Assembly: GCA_026023565.1 (NCBI GenBank)
Contig: JAPETS010000035.1
Location: 248,001-312,000 of the forward strand
DNA: 64,000 bases
Origin: Cirrosporium novae-zelandiae
Lineage: Eukaryota
Direction of reading: 5' to 3'
Below, one piece after another: positions 1-35,880 of this stretch (position 1 is its first letter; every line of letters starts with the position of its first letter). The notes under the pieces are model-generated. The model made no database searches. It saw nothing but the letters and a program-made list of their open reading frames with translations, and was not told the origin of the DNA. The translations under genes were made by a program, and so were the position numbers.

Positions 1-3000
1 GACATTCAAGGTATTCGTAGATAGGGTGTGAAAGAAGATCAGAGGGTGAAGAGGTGATTCCTGGGCTTGGATAGTAGAGGTGAGGTTTGATGGTATGGTA
101 TGGCATAGTATGGAAACGGGATAAAGGGTTTCATAAACCTGGCTGTTCGCCCTTGTGTTGATTATCGACCATTAATTTCCTAGCTTGCAGTTGCTGTGCT
201 TGAAGATGGTGAGATAGGCTTTTTTCTTATGTTTTTTTCTCGATTTAAAAATTTCTCCCTTTTTCCTTTCACATGACAATAGGTTATGCCGCGTGGATCT
301 CAGCCCCTCAAAAGCTATGCGGGAAGTTAAAGACTGATTGCATGTAACTTTGGAGCATGGGCTACCCCAATACTTTTTTTATTTGTGGCTTGAATCTTCT
401 TTTAATGTTATGTAATGCGATTTTTGATTGACTGGGTTAAAGGTAGTACTCTGGAATAAGATATTTGTTGTATTTGTGGGGAAATGTGGTCATGCTCATC
501 CCTAGGGTTGACATTGACATCAAGCTTGCCAGAAAGCCAGATGACACAACGGAGTAGAGAAGGAAGGGTTCAATAATAAAGCGCGTACAGAATTCCTGCT
601 GAAGGACAGGGTAAATAAAATGAATATTGACAATTAACCCTAGGAGAGTTTGTCGCGGCCAGACATTCATACAGTTCCAGGTACCTAGTGGTTAATCAAT
701 TTACGATGAACAATGATTTGGCATTTGATATGTCAAGGAAGTCATCAAATAAAATTGGTGATTGATCGATCCGTGTGAGACTTAAATATTAATAGCCTGG
801 GCCTGTAGTAACGAAGGCGTCTGCGAAGAAAGAAGTAGAGGATACCTGAGGGAAAGCGTTGACAGATAGAACACTGGTTTGGGTGTAATAAGCTGAGGAC
901 TACCTTCTGAATGCACATCTTGTAGCTTCATCAATTCTGAGGCAAGGCTATCTGAACCTTTTGTTTTTCTTGAAATGAATGGTTCCTCTAGAAAACCACA
1001 CTTGTCTTGAGCCATTTCCCTCAAATATCTACCTAGGTACCTAGGTAGTTAGTGCAGTGGTTGCCCTCTGGGTAAATGTCCGACCTATTAATGACTGAAA
1101 ATGTCGGTTTGAATCCAACCTTGATCACCTCAGTTTCCTGCTGGGAGGAAAACACCTCTTGTAGGTGATTTTTCATAGGATATGCTCTATTAAAGTGCAT
1201 ATGTAATTCATCTGTGATGTTAGTGAGTATTTCATATTGAAAAAATAGGTCATGTCATCGATACGAGGGGCATATCTTGTATCTATTCTCTATTCTCCAG
1301 CGGGGATCTAGGATGGGATTTAAAGCGTAGAATTAACCATCAACCGCTCTGAAAGCTCGCCAAGACCCTGAACTCGACGTGGTTTAAACCCTTTTAAATT
1401 GATCGCTCATGTGGATCTTCTTTTCAGGGTCTGAACAGGTTTTCGGGCGCTTGACATGAAATATCCACTCTTGAAACCCTGGCACTAATGTATATTCATT
1501 GGATTATAGGGCGAGATCAGGAACCATCATTCGGCAATTCCTTGGATGAGCGGACAGGGAAATAGACGGTATTTAACCGACAGCCAAGTCGCAGTCAAGT
1601 CACGAGGGAAATGCGGAGGAGATAGTCTTTGAACGAAGGATATATAGTGTCTATATCGAAATGCGGAGTGCGGAGTAAGACGTTCAGTTGTGGAGTCTGG
1701 AGTAGGTCAGGTGGAAGGCTGTGTGGAGTTGTCTACTCGAGTAGATGTAAGCAGGGCTGAAGAGCAACACCAAAATCATTCAGCATATTCGTGCGAGGAT
1801 GACTGTCATCTTGTGTGTAGGGTTGGAGAGTCACAACTGACTCAGTTAATTAGTATTAGGATTTTAAGGTCAGGACCTGAAGACCAAATCCATCTTATTT
1901 ATTTATGTATTGGAGGCAGCTGAAATTAAAGTAATAATGTAAATTATGTCGTGTACCCCTCCAAGATTATCGTTATTTCGGAGCTATTTGTGGGCGGTGT
2001 TGGCTTAGGATTAATTAGGAAATCAGACCATAAGTGATGATGTACGAGTACGACGAGTACCAGTACGGGACCTGTAATTATGAGTTACCCAGGGGCTGAG
2101 AGGAAAAGGAAAACCATATTCTATCAACCATATCTACTAAAATCACCCAATTCACTGACATCAAAAATATTTCCCCCCTGTTCAAGGTTCATTCAAGTTC
2201 CAACTTCAATTCAGCAGTTTATTCATCAATTTATTTGATAGCTAAATCTCAACCAAAGAAACAGGTTCTCAACCTGGTACTTTCAGACATCAAGTATCCC
2301 GAGTATCCAAGTATTTCTTATCGTCCACCTTTCCTTTTTCCATCAAGCTCTTGATCATCCCTCCCCCAATCATTTAGTCCAAAAGCCACTTCAGACCTTG
2401 GGATTAAACCAAAACTCTCGTGCCCTTGGTCAAGCTACTTACCACTTACTTCCCTCCCGTTGAAGCCAGGGAAACCAGCACACCAGAGTGCCGAAGATTC
2501 AAAGACTCAAGCGAAACAAGACCAGACTCAGCAACAGTCCGAATCATTACCGTCCTTTTGTACCCATCAAGTGTTACTAATTAATTTGCCATCATTCTTC
2601 GATACCTTGCAGGTTTCAATCAGATGCAACTCGGTTGTGCATGCGTGATCCACCAGTTCTTCTGGAATTTCCAAGACCAGAGGTGCCCCAGGTGCTCAAG
2701 TGCTCGCTCGACCCTTCCCCCGTTACGCTGAGGCTTATTCTCCACAATCCCTGTCCCGTCCGACTGGACAGCAGGACCACGACCATCGCTTCCCTTCGAC
2801 CCAACAAACATCATAAAATTCCTTAGGCCGACTTCACCGTCGGCCCTTTTCCGCAGTCACAATTCCTTTCCAAAATCCCCTCCGTCCACCTTCCATTCCA
2901 CTCCGAAACCTTTCTAGATCATCCTCTCAATCAGATACACTCCTTGATTCTGACGACGAGAAACGAGGACGCCCGAGGTCCTCTCAATCCTCGGATTCGG

Positions 3001-3275
3001 CTGGTTCGGACTTCTCTCTCTGGAGTAATACTGGAGATCTAGGAGATCGACTCGCTGAAGAGGAGGATCCTCTTCGGATCAAACTCAGGGAATCTTTAGA
3101 AGAAGGGCATTCATCCCGAGGTCGCCGAAAGAAGTCCAAACGCGTTCGATATCAACTTTCAGACGACCCTGACCGCCAAGTCAGCGAAGCTGGATTCGAT
3201 AAAGAGGCTATTGAGATTCCGAACCCGGCGCCGCGGCAGATTAGCAAACTTGAAAGATATATTGCTTCTATCATC

Positions 3276-5204
3276 ATGAGTGACCATCGAAGTTCAGGCC
3301 AGATGCATGGCCTGGTGGGGAAGCCGTTGCTGTAAGAGCTGACATCGAATATACCTGATTATCAACATACTAATCAACTGCAGTTACTTCACAAGTGTAT
3401 TTGTATCATTAGGCGTTTTTCTTTTTGGATATGATCAAGGTGTTATGTCGGGCATCATCACGTATATTCCCCCCCATCTCTGTATTCCATATTGAGATGC
3501 TGACGATAAACTTGTAACAGTGGCCCTTATTTTAAAGATTATTTCAATCAACCCAAACCAGCTCAGATAGGGACCATGGTAGCTATTCTTGAAGTTGGAG
3601 CTTTCATATCATCCTTATCTGTTGGCCGAATCGGAGACATGATCGGCCGACGGCGAACAATCCTTTACGGTTCTATCGTGTTCTTCGTCGGAGGAGCTTG
3701 TCAGACCTTTGCTACAGGAATGAAAATGATGCTTTTGGGCCGTATAATCGCTGGTCTTGGCGTGGGTGCTCTCTCAACCATCGTTCCAGTTTATCAATCG
3801 GAGATTTCCCCGCCACATAACCGAGGAAAGCTGGCGTGCATAGAATTCTCCGGGAATGTAGCTGGATATTGTGCTAGTGTTTGGGTTGACTACGGCTGCA
3901 GCTTTATTGAGAGTGACTACTCATGGCGTGTACCACTTCTCTTGCAGTGCTTCATGGGAGCACTGTTGGGATTTGGCAGTATAATCATCTGTGAATCCCC
4001 TAGGTTAGTCTACTATATGATTTTATCTAAACCTGTGGTTACTAACCATCCATAGATGGCTGTTAGACAATGACCATGACGAGGAAGGCATTGTTGTCAT
4101 TGCCAATCTTTACGGAAAAGGAGACATCCACAACGATAAAGCACGACAAGAATACCGAGATATTAAGATGGATGTTCTTCTTCAGAGACAAGAAGGTGAA
4201 AAGTCTTATCATGATATGTTTAAGCGGTTTTACAAACGCGTCTTCATTGCCATGTCTGCTCAGGCTTTGGCCCAGCTCAATGGTATCAATGTCATCAGCT
4301 ACTATGCCCCACTGGTGTTTGAGCAAGCAGGATGGGCTGGTCGAAACGCTATTCTTATGACAGGCATTAACGGTATCACCTATCTATTATCCACAGTTCC
4401 GCCATGGTATTTAGTCGATCAATGGGGTCGTCGGGTTATTCTTCTTTCCGGAGCAGTGGCTATGATTATCTCGCTTTCTTCTATTTCCTATTTTATTTAT
4501 ATTGACATCCACTATACCCCCACACTGGTTGTGATTTTTGTCATGTTGTACAATGCGGCTTTTGGGGCGTCATGGGGTCCAATTCCTTGGCTCTACCCCC
4601 CTGAAATTCTTCCCTTGAGTATTCGCGCCAAAGGTGCTAGCTTGAGTACTGCATCAAACTGGGCGTTCAACTTTTTGGTTGGAGAAATTACTCCTGTCCT
4701 TCAACAATGGATTAAATGGCGTCTATACCTTGTTCATGCATTCTTCTGCGCAGTTAGTTTTGTTGTTGGTAAGTCTACGGCCCCAAAATTCTCTATTTTA
4801 TTCATTATCAATGCTAATTTTTTTGAAATTTAGTTTGGTTCCTTTACCCTGAAACAAGTGGTGTTCGGCTGGAGGACATGAATGCTCTGTTCGGAGATGC
4901 TTCAACTGCGATGCCTACGCCTGCTACCCAAGCCGAACGTGCATCTCTCATGGGCGTGGGTTCCCCTGTGCCGTCTTTGGACATCCGTAACCAGACGCAA
5001 TTCGGACCTGATAGCGCCATTCCTGGACTGGATATTGATCCTCCACATGTCGCGATAGAGAATGGCAAGCCGCAACTCAGAGATATCAGCGCTAGAGGAT
5101 CTCCAAGCGTTAGCTCTTTTATTGGAAGAGTATTCAACCGCGGGGGCGGATCATCAAAGGATGAGGAAGGTGCATATAGACCGTTAGGACAGGACGAGGA
5201 ATAG
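3276..5204 (+). CDS. MFS sugar porter (monosaccharide transporter), 5 exons; possibly N-terminally extended from a non-AUG start near 2862
   Basis: Spliced motifs FGYDQG, DMIGRRR, PVYQSEISP..RG, CESPRWL, QLNGINVISYY, PEILP..RAKG, YPETSG. First intron GTAAGA at 3332; further introns near 3462, 4003 and 4769. First in-frame ATG at 3276; stop TAG ends at 5204. Confidence 0.93.
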
Positions 5205-32327: not shown

Positions 32328-33501
32328 ATGAAGGAAGCAATCGTCCAAACCGACCTCTACGTAAAGGTTCACGACGCCCCTATCCCAACTCCGGGCCCCT
32401 CTCAACTTGTCATCAAAGTCATTGTGTCAGGTCAAAACCCCAAAGACTGGAAAATACCCATCCTATTTAAGGAAGACCACAATCCCGGCGACGACATCGC
32501 GGGCATTGTGCACGCAGTCGGGGATGAGGTGACAGAGTTCAGGGTCGGCGATAGGGTCGCCGCATTTCACGAGATGTTCAAAGACCATGGGAGCTATGCC
32601 GAGTATGCGGTCGCGTGGGATCACACAACATTTCATATTCCTACAAAGACTTCTTTTGAAGGCGAGTCTATCCCACCATTCCCACCTTTTCTGTGCAGCA
32701 TTCTAGCCCCCGCAGTTTTTTAGTGCCTCCTCCTTCCTCGATACCAGACCATAGTACTCATAACTCTTTACAGAAGCCGCCACAATTCCTCTCGCAGCCA
32801 TGACTGCAGCCATAGGCCTCTACCAACGGCTATCCCTCCCCCTCCCTTGGCAACCAACCACAGAACCAATCCCCCTCCTAATCTACGGCGGCGCCACGGC
32901 CGTCGGGGCCTTTGCGCTGAAACTCGCCTCCCTCTCCAATATCCACCCCCTCATAACCGTCGCAGGCAGGGGCATCCCATTCGTAGAATCCCTCCTAGAC
33001 AAATCCAAAGGCGACATGGTAATCGACTACCGCAAGGGTGACGAAAGCGTCGTATCAGAAATCAAAACCGCCCTCGGCGGCCGCAAATTAAAACACGCCT
33101 ACGATGGAGTCTCCGAAGGCTCCTCGGCGCGGAATATTGGAAAGGTCCTCGACCCTACCGCCGGCTCCCTCCTAACCTACGTCCTCACACTCGAAAAAGG
33201 CGTCTTCCCCCCTGCGGTGAAAACAAATCTCACCATGGTCGGCGACGCCCACAACCCGGCCCCCGCGGACTCGGAGGCCGCCAAGCAAGGGTGCAAGATC
33301 GGTACCCCGGAGTTTGCGTATGTGATGTTTCGGTTTTTTGGAAGGGGGTTGGCGAAGGGGTGGTTTGAGGGTCACCCTTTTGAGATTAGGAAGGGGGGGT
33401 TGGGTGGGCTGGAGGGTGGGTTGAAGGATTTGAAGGCTGGGAAGGTTAGTGCCAAGAAGTTTGTTTATAGGATTGGGGAGACAGAGGGGGTGGAGCTTTG
33501 A
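32328..33501 (+). CDS. MDR-superfamily NAD(P)-dependent enoyl-reductase-like oxidoreductase (ToxD/LovC-like), 2 exons
   Basis: NPKDWK, GDDIAG.V..VG..V.EF.VGDRV, GSYAEY, SFE|EAATIPLA and LIYGGATAVG motifs; C-terminal KVSAKK.V. Confidence 0.88.
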
Positions 33502-33539: not shown

Positions 33540-35880
33540 TTAATATTTCTTCCTTTTTCTCTTCCTTTTTCTCTTCCTTTTTCTCTTCCTTTTTCTTTCT
33601 TTTTTTCTCACATTTTTCTTTCTTTCTTATATATCTATTTTTTAAAAAAAAAAATGTTACGAGGCCTCTCCACTAATAAGGGTATAACCAGGTATAATAT
33701 TGTCAACTGGAGATCTAAAACCTAAGGTGAAAACCCTCAGCATAAGGAAAGGTGACGCTAGGACATGTGCCCTAAGTGGTTTTAGCCTAACCAGAACATA
33801 ATTAGTACCAAGGAGCCATAACAAAGAAAGAAAAGAAAGACAATTAATTAGACTTCAATCGATTAACAAATAGGTCTAATTATTCTATCCACTAGATATT
33901 CATTTTTAAAATTCCATTTCATTTCATAACATCAAATATCCCTTTCCTCCCCTCCCCCCCCCAAAAAAGACTCAGTTGTCAGTCCCTTTTTTTTTTTTTT
34001 CCTATTCCTAGAGGAAGGTATTGGAAAGATAGGCTAAACTAATAATTAATAATTCTTACCTTTTTTCTTGGGTTCTTATCTAAGCTAAGCTGAGCTAAAA
34101 GGGGGACCTGGGATTGATTTATATTTGCTATTTAAGTGGTCGTTTATCTAGTGATGGTGATGGTGATGGGATATATATACTGTGACCTGGTTGCGCTGTA
34201 ACGGGAGGGGAGGGGAGGGGGGGTTATAAGGATCGTAAGGGATTATAAAGATTGTAGATTTATTATTTACGTGTTATTTATGTGGTTATGGACCTAGACT
34301 TTTACCTACAGACTTTATCTGTACTATATATATTATTATACATCTCCTTTTTTTTTTCTACTACTACTACCATAGATATATAACATATCTTTTACATTAG
34401 AAAATAAATACTAATTATTACTATACCAGTGTGACTGGTGTGACCAATCACTCACTTAATTGGCGCGCTCTTGAGGAATTGGATTTGGCTTAGTTTAGCT
34501 TAGCCTAGTCCCTAGTACTTCTGTGTATTCGATACCTTATATATATATATATGTGTGTATATGTGTGCGTGTGTGTATGTGTGTGTTTTCCCCCTCTATC
34601 CTTTAGGGTTTTTTAATGTCTTGGTTCCGATGGGGGTTGTGGTTAGGGTTGGGGTTGGGTTAGTTGGTTGATTGATTGGTTTTGTCTGTTGGGGAGGTTT
34701 TTTTTATTACTTTGGGTTTGTGTATCTATGGATGGATAATAAAGAAGGAAAGAAGGAAGAGAGAGGAAATGGATGGATGGATGAAAGCGGGGGGGATAAC
34801 TATACTAGAGATAATGGATAATGGATAATGCAAAGAAGGAGAAAGAGAGAGAGAGAGAAAAGGGGGGTGGAGTAGTTAGTTGGTTGATGTGAGATTCCAC
34901 CCCCCCTCTTTCTTTCTCTCCCTCCCTGCTCTCTGCTCACCACCTTAGAAGGGAAAGCAAAGAACTTATATTTTGTGAATAAAGCTTTTAGGAGAAAAAA
35001 AAAACACTGATATATATTTTAAGAAGTGCCTTTGCTGACTGTAATAGTCACTGCAAGTTACTTACTAAGTACATGTTGGTTATGTTAGTTATAAGTTATA
35101 GATTTACCTATACTATTATACTATATATATATATATATTTTATATATTAGCCCGATGGAGTTTGGTTGGCTGGTTAGGTTTTTTAATTTTGCTTTACTTA
35201 TCTATAGATTACAAACGAAAGTGAAAGAAAGAAAATGGATGAATGAATGCATGAATGAATGCATGAAAGCGGGGGATAACTACATGTAGATGTACTGTAC
35301 AATAAATAGCAACACAAAGAGACAGAGAGAGAGAGAAAGAAAAAGAAGAGGGGGAAGGGAAGACTTACCTACTATAAGAGAAGAGATGCTTACATTTGGT
35401 TTTTAAATTTTTTTAAATTTTTTTTATTTGTTTGTTTGTTGCTTGCTTGCTTAGTTAAAGTCATTCAAGTCAAATGATGAACAAAACTTTGAAGAAAAAG
35501 AAGCTGCAATGGTTAGATAGCTATAGATGAGATGAGATGAATGTGAACAGAAAAAAAAGACGAAAAATTCCCAATCCCAAGTAAGGAGATATTTGCAAGG
35601 AAAAAAGGGAAATAGAATACTTTACCGTCCCTATTTTTTTGATGGTTTTCATCGACTGATTATAGTAGCCATTAGTAGTGGTTGCCTAGATGGTTAGATC
35701 ATGAGGAAGAGAGAAAATCCAATCCCAAAGACTTTTTTTCGAAAATGCCAATCTAAGAATGGCGTATAAGACAAAAGAAATGGAAAAAAACTTACCAGTC
35801 CATCCATCCTTTTAAAACTTTTTTCCCTTGTCAAGCAATATTTCTATCATCATCAGGTCATCAAAGTCATTATTCTCGTT
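33540..35880. repeat. AT-rich, microsatellite-rich tract with nested diverged direct duplications
   Basis: Homopolymer and (AT)n/(GA)n/(GGAT)n runs with no ORFs. Paired motifs at 34628/35152, 34781/35263, 35509/35690 and 35571/35719. Confidence 0.75.

Follow-up and report, generated by a model that had tools for sequence, protein, structure and literature searches.

The window analysed here (64,000 nucleotides (nt) of Cirrosporium novae-zelandiae contig JAPETS010000035.1; all positions below are those of this whole stretch) carries on its + strand the gene for an MFS sugar transporter whose reading frame is open far upstream of its first ATG, and we propose, with a probability of about 0.7, that translation starts at an AUU codon at 2862 and, by leaky scanning, also at the AUG at 3276, giving isoforms of 704 and 566 amino acids (aa). 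The mRNA leader would be long and would include no AUG able to open the conserved extension. A fraction of the scanning 43S complexes would start at AUU 2862, presumably with initiator methionyl-tRNA (Met-tRNAi), in a Kozak-type fungal context with C at -4 and A at -3, yielding the 704-aa protein with a cytosolic N-terminal tail of 138 residues, while other complexes would scan through a further 414 nt, apparently kept AUG-free in all three frames by selection, and start at AUG 3276 (AUC-AUG), yielding the 566-aa transporter that lacks the tail. A conserved hairpin located 5' of the AUU in the untranslated leader would probably modulate the choice between the two starts. AUU initiation, the existence of two isoforms and the role of the hairpin are all inferred from features of the sequence and their conservation.

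The open frame upstream of the first ATG

From stop to stop, the transporter frame extends from 2817 to 3335 (+ strand, 172 codons) and lies directly 3' of a TAA at 2814-2816. The first in-frame ATG is at 3276, and the 153 codons that precede it include no ATG, GTG or TTG, as the original prediction had stated, and no CTG or ACG. The only near-cognate codons among them are ATT (2862, 2895, 3210, 3216, 3240 and 3261), ATC, AGG and AAG, and ATT 2862, for which the predicted context GTCACA-ATT is correct (GTCACA-ATT-CCT), is the first near-cognate codon of the frame. The YAG noted earlier at 2854-2856 is a CAG. Between 2083 and 3275 an ATG is found only at 2624 and 2641, both out of the transporter frame, and among 1,199 ATG-free gaps on the window's + strand the longest two are 2641 to 3276 (635 nt) and 2080 to 2624 (544 nt), the third-longest being 389 nt.

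The gene is identified by matches of two exon translations to the Pfam family Sugar_tr (PF00083; 126.4 and 166.5 bits, cut-off 22.3). Exon 1 from the proposed start spans 2862-3331 (+), and the transporter body (3276..5204, +) is made up of the rest of exon 1 (to 3331) and exons 3384-3461, 3521-4003, 4056-4768 and 4834-5204, with the stop codon TAG at 5202-5204. The joined exons, taken from 2862, encode residue 50 to the C-terminus of the NCBI protein P0002. This protein matches the window translation with 100 % identity and comes from a metagenome-assembled genome of Cirrosporium novae-zelandiae (lineage Xylobotryomycetes), where it is annotated as hypothetical.

The N-terminal extension (2862..3275, +) comprises 138 codons, is rich in Ser, Arg, Pro, Asp and Glu, and is free of ATG in all three frames. 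When the translation of 2817-3331 was scanned, without a profile, against 1.84 billion representative proteins, 163 relatives were obtained at E<=1e-3, 110 of them at E<=1e-10, which bears out the earlier impression that the translation is protein-like. Relatives were found in lichen-forming fungi, Patellaria, Hortaea, Aureobasidium, Phaeomoniella, Chaetomium, Neurospora, Podospora, Fusarium, Colletotrichum, Trichoderma, Metarhizium and others. The conserved blocks in the extension are IPLR, DEK, SAGSDFSLWS.TGDL..L.EEEDPLRI (which includes SAGSDFSLWSDTGDLAEQLA.EEDPLRI), KRVRY and DKEAIEIP, and a further conserved block is IM...HGLTGKPL. The extension matched 0 Pfam families at E<=0.01. An AlphaFold2 model of P0002, built from a 20-row alignment, was uninformative (mean predicted local distance difference test score (pLDDT) 40.8, predicted template modelling score (pTM) 0.35, tail <50 throughout).

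Of 215 matching stretches of metagenome contigs, 186 were confirmed as related loci, and the analysis covers the best 80 of these. These 80 loci represent 56 distinct exon-1 frames, or 57 with the window, and as one (L040) is cut at a contig end, 56 sequences were available for all DNA tallies. At 90, 80, 70 and 60 % amino acid identity, the 56 sequences cluster into 47, 34, 21 and 10 groups, respectively. Start sites were located with the pattern CA..ATT followed by P, A or S, which only L040 failed, and a MAFFT alignment (A2) cut by position only shows that these sites are homologous.

The mean pairwise difference at codon positions 1, 2 and 3 is 0.373, 0.307 and 0.601, respectively (138 of 177 aligned codon columns, 56 sequences), and 58,286 of the 157,604 differing codon pairs in the extension are synonymous. 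The frequent stops in orthologous frames that would have spoken against a coding extension were not seen: in all 56 loci the frame runs without a stop from the ATT to the conserved ATG, an interval of 124-162 open codons in which the window shares 39-57 % amino acid identity with the other loci. Judged by this pattern of substitution, the extension is a genuine and widespread protein-coding segment.

The ATT codon, the ATG-free interval and the leader hairpin

The conserved Met aligned with 3276, located 75-93 residues after the W[ST]DTGD block, is the first in-frame Met in all 57 frames, and no in-frame ATG is found ahead of it although the open frame extends up to 182 codons 5' of the Ile codon aligned with 2862. 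This Ile codon is ATT in 56 of 56 sequences, and C at -4, A at -3 and C at +5 are likewise present in every one (2858, 2859 and 2866 in the window, where the proposed initiation site occupies 2858..2866 (+) and the ATT itself 2862-2864). Together these are the sole invariant columns of alignment A2; position +6 is T in 50 of the 56. The two codons before the ATT do not behave as codons, as codon -1 could encode T, I, K or N and codon -2 could encode V, G, F, A or L, with bases 1 and 2 of codon -2 varying while base 3 is fixed, the reverse of the coding pattern. As controls, the next conserved Ile (in IPL[RHQ]) is encoded by ATC in 24, ATA in 14 and ATT in 11 cases, and the remaining Ile codons of the extension are ATC (206), ATT (110) and ATA (100). 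By this comparison of codons, the ATT is selected as nucleotides and not as a residue. The conservation asked for by the original prediction is thus seen both in the SDFSLWS.TGDL block and at the aligned start codon, and its proposal of an AUU start at 2862, with a form about 138 aa longer beside the plain AUG form, gains strong comparative support.

In-frame stops are found very close to the 5' side of the ATT, at a distance of 3 codons (a TAA in L073), 7 codons (L070), 8 codons (L033), 11 codons (L042), 12 codons (L004, L006, L030 and L032) and 15 codons (the window). L066, L072, L073 and the window (four of 56) have no near-cognate codon between the stop and the ATT, and in L073 the three codons of this interval hold neither an AG nor a near-cognate codon, so no splice acceptor is possible there. 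A difference of one base in the hairpin loop distinguishes L070 from its close relative L079; it changes the frame on the 5' side, with a TAA in frame in L070 only. To judge by these stops and by the even spread of the hairpin's 5' end over the three frames (see below), the sequence 5' of the ATT is not coding, and the coding region begins at the ATT.

The interval between the ATT and the conserved ATG is 372-486 nt long, and 47 of the 56 sequences have no ATG in any frame within it, 7 have one and 2 have two. Pooled over 23.8 kb, this amounts to 11 ATG (0.46 per kb) compared with 191 expected from dinucleotide frequencies, the lowest ratio of observed to expected among the 64 trinucleotides, and ATG density in the 1.5 kb downstream is 22.7 per kb. 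The 11 out-of-frame ATG compare with 86.8 +/- 6.7 (minimum 63) in 200 synonymous-codon shuffles; Met accounts for 0 of the 7,876 residues of the extension. In 50-nt bins the density is 0-1.4 ATG per kb from -100 to +399 relative to the ATT, 30 at +400 and 14-20 beyond -350, with a local peak at -200..-151. The conserved downstream ATG (3276..3278, +; ATC-ATG), the proposed start of the 566-aa short isoform, is in good context, with A at -3 in 51 and C at -1 in 52 of the 56. Both elements of a leaky-scanning arrangement predicted to yield two isoforms, namely an AUG-free interval and a second start in good context, are therefore apparent in the alignment.

A stem-loop lies just 5' of the ATT in 55 of the 56 sequences (L053 is without it), typically of the form GGGCTG-N6-9-CAGCCC. 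In the window it occupies 2826..2845 (+), with arms GGCCGAC (2826-2832) and GTCGGCC (2839-2845) around the loop TTCACC, and ends 16 nt 5' of the ATT; its energy is -14 kcal/mol (z -3.91) and 0 of 200 shuffles were equally stable. Across the loci the mean energy is -10.3 kcal/mol compared with -4.2 for shuffled sequences, and -9 kcal/mol is reached by 71 % compared with 7 %. The 3' end of the hairpin lies 9-16 nt before the ATT in 54 of 55 sequences, and its 5' end is distributed 19/18/18 over the three positions of the frame. RNAalifold applied to A2 recovered the four inner pairs, and all four show one or more double-sided changes. A hairpin-centred alignment (A3; 44 of the 55 sequences, with near-duplicates, L037 and L047 left out, and segments picked by folding, which favours pairing) gave a seven-pair helix that is 90.6 % paired, with double-sided changes in six pairs, and variant arms include GGACTG/CAGTCC, GGGTTC/GAACCC and GAGCTG/CAGCTC. 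A second stem, between upstream bases and the hairpin loop, is just 46 % paired in A3, its columns being shifted. For both helices together, neither the observed pairing nor the covariation score was reached by any of 500 shuffles, and slid partners gave 32-45 % pairing. A search of positions 2000-3400 against Rfam 15 gave a lone match at chance level (sR38, 15.5 bits compared with a gathering score of 50, E 0.92). A CAG in the 3' arm was considered as a conserved splice acceptor and rejected, because L046, L053, L063, L073 and the window have no CAG at that place and because the arm changes in concert with its partner.

Further features of the leader were observed in subsets of the loci. In a direct count of the second stem, pairing between the first four loop bases and the four bases just 5' of the hairpin, as GGAG:CTCC or GCAG:CTGC depending on the clade, is possible in 26 of the 44 loci compared with 8.0 expected from shuffled upstream segments (for example L038-L049, L026, L029, L045, L054-L062 and L071-L076). 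In L073 this pairing (GCGG:CTGC) keeps a G-U pair, and it is absent in the lichen clade and in the window, where 2815-2838 was checked. It fits an H-type pseudoknot or an alternative hairpin. A sequence containing an ATG, ATG(C/T G)TGAYCC(AC), was found by a simple regular expression 119-226 nt 5' of the ATT in 21 of 56 loci, namely the window, where it is ATGCGTGATCCAC at 2641-2653 (+) and holds ATG 2641, and L001, L004, L006, L011, L016, L019, L021, L026, L028, L029, L037, L039, L045, L054, L057, L062, L071, L072, L076 and L078. Its -3 base is a pyrimidine in the loci inspected, and the ORF (open reading frame) that it opens is ATG TGA in one clade, 7-8 codons in lichen-type loci (MRDPHPS* and MRDPLPSS*) and 61 codons in the window. 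The sequence may act as a promoter element or, as an upstream ORF, have a regulatory role. By eye, a motif (C)TGTGACGT(G), which we take to resemble a bZIP/cAMP response element (CRE) half-site, was seen about 60-100 nt 5' of the ATT in L026, L035, L037, L042, L045, L054, L057, L062, L072 and L076, with TGATCACGAAGC farther 5'. These could be promoter elements, which would put the transcription start nearer the hairpin in that clade. Finally, GGCTGCTGATCCATTCCA, which repeats the GGCTGCT of the hairpin and an ATTCC resembling the start site, is found about 100 nt 5' of the ATT in L014, L016, L019 and L021, and partially in L070.

The 9-16 nt between hairpin and AUU roughly match the spacing of the P site and the mRNA exit channel on the ribosome. 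A tentative extension of the proposed mechanism, which we hold to be possible but doubtful, is that the hairpin is a dedicated cis-element that re-forms behind, or docks on, the scanning 40S subunit and holds it over the weak AUU, as an upstream equivalent of the known effect of downstream hairpins. Acting with the conserved upstream AUG in weak context (an AUG-stop in one clade), it would determine how much tailed relative to tail-less transporter is made, depending on initiation-factor status or nutrient state, across the Pezizomycotina.

Alternative explanations, gene models and other features

The extension could be translated by a route other than plain scanning to the AUU, for example by reinitiation after the ORF that ends at 2826, by a 40S subunit placed by the hairpin, or from another near-cognate codon such as the Ile codon at 2895. 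Two upstream ORFs precede the ATT in the window, both on the + strand and out of the transporter frame, the first at 2624..2731 (ATG 2624, 35 codons, stop TGA 2729-2731) and the second at 2641..2826 (61 codons, stop TAG 2824-2826). The second adjoins the hairpin, stopping at its first base, and the conserved distance from hairpin to ATT would also suit such a route. Elsewhere, however, the ends of upstream ORFs are not at a conserved distance (-568 to +113). As for the second Ile codon, that of IPLR, it is always AUH and all three AUH codons are near-cognate, but RRPAN, which lies between the two Ile codons, is conserved and, like similar blocks 3' of the ATT, varies synonymously, so translation begins 5' of RRPAN, and it is the first Ile codon alone that is invariably ATT and has a constant context. 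We regard this group of explanations as unlikely.

The NCBI model offers a second alternative, as P0002 starts at ATG 2641 and joins the extension via an intron at 2753..2826 (+; donor GTCCCG, acceptor TAG, no CTRAY branch motif seen). Translation would then begin at a standard AUG, in the ATGCGTGATCC motif, on a small exon, with either this intron or one from the donor GTGATC at 2645 to TAG 2826 or CAG 2856, and a GT at 2645 or 2753 is indeed in phase with both acceptors. The models of Lepraria finkii, Cladonia borealis and Stereocaulon virgatum also begin MRDP..., and the ATG motif of the 21 loci described above is followed by GT. However, the original prediction had found no consensus donor in phase after ATGs 2624 and 2641, and this stands: GTCCCG and GTGATC lack G at +5 and no CTRAY was seen, unlike the four clear introns of the gene, which have donors GTAAGA, GTATAT, GTTAGT and GTAAGT and branch motifs CTAAT, CTGAC, CTAAC and CTAAT (donors were compared with the window's own introns only, as a collection of the first GT after GKPL across all loci was too crude). 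The annotated junctions vary by species, and in one clade the motif is ATG-TGA, a start followed immediately by a stop. No acceptor is available in the short TAA-to-ATT interval of L073, and L046 has no AG within 73 nt 5' of the ATT. The depletion of ATG from about -100 to the ATT resembles a scanned leader rather than an intron, and an intron here would leave the invariance of the ATT, C(-4) and A(-3) unexplained.

Intron-free ORFs of 736-784 aa on contigs of 2.5-2.9 kb provide a further test. They run through every intron position and are inferred on that account to derive from spliced RNA. Two of them, P0198 (784 aa) and P0199 (782 aa), are full-length on contigs of 2.7-2.9 kb and are collinear with the genomic P0192, an exon-1 ORF that reads into intron 1, from 77 codons 5' of the Ile codon (233 of 236 identical, no gaps), while P0012 and P0029 are collinear from 33 codons 5' of it. 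Hence, no intron was removed just 5' of the ATT in these lichens, which represent two lineages. An ordinary spliced first exon, with a consensus donor, branch and acceptor conserved among orthologues, was not found, an upstream ATG exon spliced to 2857, which the original prediction had named as a way in which it could fail, is disfavoured, and the first intron of the NCBI model is probably spurious. We consider a start on a small upstream exon quite improbable.

The gene models of close relatives range from 565 to 816 aa. Those of 565-567 aa start at the conserved ATG (Neurospora crassa OR74A XP_956491.3, several Podospora species and Xanthoria), and the N-termini of those of 721-816 aa (other Neurospora, Letharia, Lepraria, Cladonia and Stereocaulon) are unrelated. 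Several models take the conserved upstream motif as their start (MRDP...), and the point at which they join the extension varies. Many published models of the family are probably wrong at the front end, to go by these disagreements. The initial M of database ORFs was considered as a marker of AUG and discarded; comparison with L001 indicates that the M of P0018 is most likely a GTG inside ATGC-GTG-ATC, and a heading M in such ORFs is hence not evidence of an ATG. Twelve orthologues (P0009, P0186, P0188, P0189, P0216, P0222, P0235, P0256, P0279, P0340, P0342 and P0343) are named by their sources 'Ribulose bisphosphate carboxylase large chain' despite Sugar_tr/MFS domains, which looks like propagated misnaming.

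That the AUG at 3276 is the sole start, with the upstream open frame being a leader conserved at the RNA level, is the reading implicit in the 565-567-aa models, and the context of this AUG is good and conserved. Against it, the open frame of 124-162 codons is kept in 56 of 56 loci, third positions are about twice as variable as second positions, more than a third of the differing codon pairs are synonymous, and blocks of amino acids are conserved; we judge it very improbable. That an assembly error hides an ATG at 2862, or that a one-base indel separates the transporter frame from the ORF opened by ATG 2641, which overlaps it by 10 nt near an AAAA run at 2815-2818, deserves next to no credence, as 55 other distinct loci, drawn from many assemblies, share the ATG-less layout and the ATT, and the peptide 5' of the overlap is not conserved.

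A number of observations nonetheless weigh against initiation at the AUU with leaky scanning to the AUG. AUU is a weak start, and in the accessible part of the work on N. crassa cpc-1, near-cognate reporter activity in vivo is given as <1 % of that of AUG (PMC5487733). The favoured G at +4 is mostly missing (C in 47, G in 6 and T in 3 of the 56), and no stabilising structure was found 3' of the ATT in the region +7..+56 (mean z -0.18; z<-2 in 4 of 56). The leader has upstream ATGs (2624 and 2641 in the window), and in L030, L032 and L042 an out-of-frame ATG 37-40 nt 5' of the ATT opens an ORF that overlaps it. The motif ATG(C)GTGAYCC contains a GT, and predictors start models there in at least 5 species including that of the window. 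Some species may have an in-frame AUG, the candidates being the initial M of P0003 (MREGLL...), P0008 (MQDGLL...) and P0198 (MTKSL...). As to the sample, the loci come from metagenome contigs and are the best 80 of the 186 confirmed, and they are mutually related, so that the counts are of non-independent events.

Beyond the extension and its start, the last exon (4834-5204) encodes a C-terminal tail of 123 residues with the family-conserved blocks AIPGLDI.PP and GGWISR and an acidic terminus, and this tail matched 0 Pfam families at E<=0.01. In positions 1-2600 of the window, no protein-like open frame of >=90 codons was found on either strand, the only two ORFs of that size having 91 and 97 codons, and the leader and promoter thus lie within an intergenic region of >2.5 kb. 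A covariance model of hairpin and ATT, searched against the whole window, returned its own locus (25.3 bits) and one weak match at 32763-32796, and hence there is no second copy in the window. The weak match (15.1 bits, E 0.12) is in CCACAATTCC context without a hairpin and reads GCCGCCACAATTCCTCTCGCAGCC-ATG, with an ATT in CCACA context four codons 5' of an in-frame ATG; it is probably due to chance. On the minus strand, the longest ATG-free stretch is a gap of 677 nt at about 34397-35074 (+ coordinates), which could mark another long leader.

Comparison with known systems

N-terminal extension from a near-cognate start is a known mechanism, of which this sugar porter would be a further case. 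No description of an AUU-initiated extension of a sugar porter was found in the full-text literature, a search outside which most subscription journals fall. A single AUU appears to be invariant across at least four classes of the Pezizomycotina, the relatives belonging to what we take to be the Lecanoromycetes, Dothideomycetes and Sordariomycetes, besides the Xylobotryomycetes of Cirrosporium. With its ATG desert and covarying upstream hairpin, it would be an unusually clean natural case of obligatory non-AUG initiation, and one that is directly testable in Neurospora. It also points to a systematic annotation problem, in that some models are cut at the second start and others have been given unrelated, invented first exons or introns. 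The prediction for transporter biology is that a widespread fungal sugar porter would exist both with and without a conserved, acidic, Ser-rich cytosolic tail, which suggests a regulatory hypothesis.

Among transporter-like proteins, the sugar sensors Snf3, Rgt2 and RCO-3 signal without transporting and have a long cytosolic tail that is C-terminal and carries a sensor-specific repeat motif, whereas the long conserved tail is N-terminal here. With respect to RNA structure, Kozak's effect is the enhancement of weak start codons by a downstream hairpin, a stable structure whose beginning lies about 14 nt or more 3' of the start codon. The Kozak hairpin and START, as far as the latter is described in the available part of PMC11165317, resemble the present case in having an RNA structure at a fixed distance from a non-AUG start, but in both of these the structure is 3' of the start, whereas here the hairpin ends 9-16 nt 5' of it. 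As the hairpin is 5' of the AUU and no downstream structure is detectable, the locus is not a member of the downstream-hairpin class.

AUU-initiated extensions are established in fungi, the examples being NCC7 of N. crassa cpc-1 (PMC5487733) and the ArgRS of Cryptococcus (PMC7049704), in so far as the accessible parts of these papers describe them. The peroxisomal isoforms of fungal 6-phosphogluconate dehydrogenase are comparable in that, from the sections available of PMC7214817, an annotated 5' untranslated region encodes a conserved extension with a non-AUG start; that extension carries a cryptic targeting signal, unlike the one described here. A close parallel in arrangement is found in cpc-1 and its Pezizomycotina homologues (Ivanov et al. 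2017, PMC5487733, again as partly available), which belong to the same fungal subphylum and share upstream ORFs in the leader, an in-frame extension that is conserved 5' of the main AUG, and near-cognate codons, an AUU among them, that are conserved and have A at -3. In cpc-1, however, several near-cognate codons are conserved, in 64-98 of 100 species, whereas here a single AUU is invariant in 56 of 56 sequences, and a covarying hairpin just 5' of the AUU and an ATG-free stretch of about 420 nt between the starts are features of the transporter and not of cpc-1. The products also differ, cpc-1 being a transcription factor and the present protein a membrane transporter, and the accessible text of PMC5487733 mentions no transporter. 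The ArgRS of Cryptococcus (Wallace et al. 2020, PMC7049704), to the extent covered by its available sections, is alike in having an AUU in an otherwise strong context 5' of the AUG of the short isoform, and in leaky scanning that gives two proteins per mRNA, which for the transporter is what its sequence would predict. There, the extension is a short organelle-targeting signal, whereas here it would be a conserved, acidic, Ser-rich tail of 138 residues on a transporter of the plasma-membrane type.

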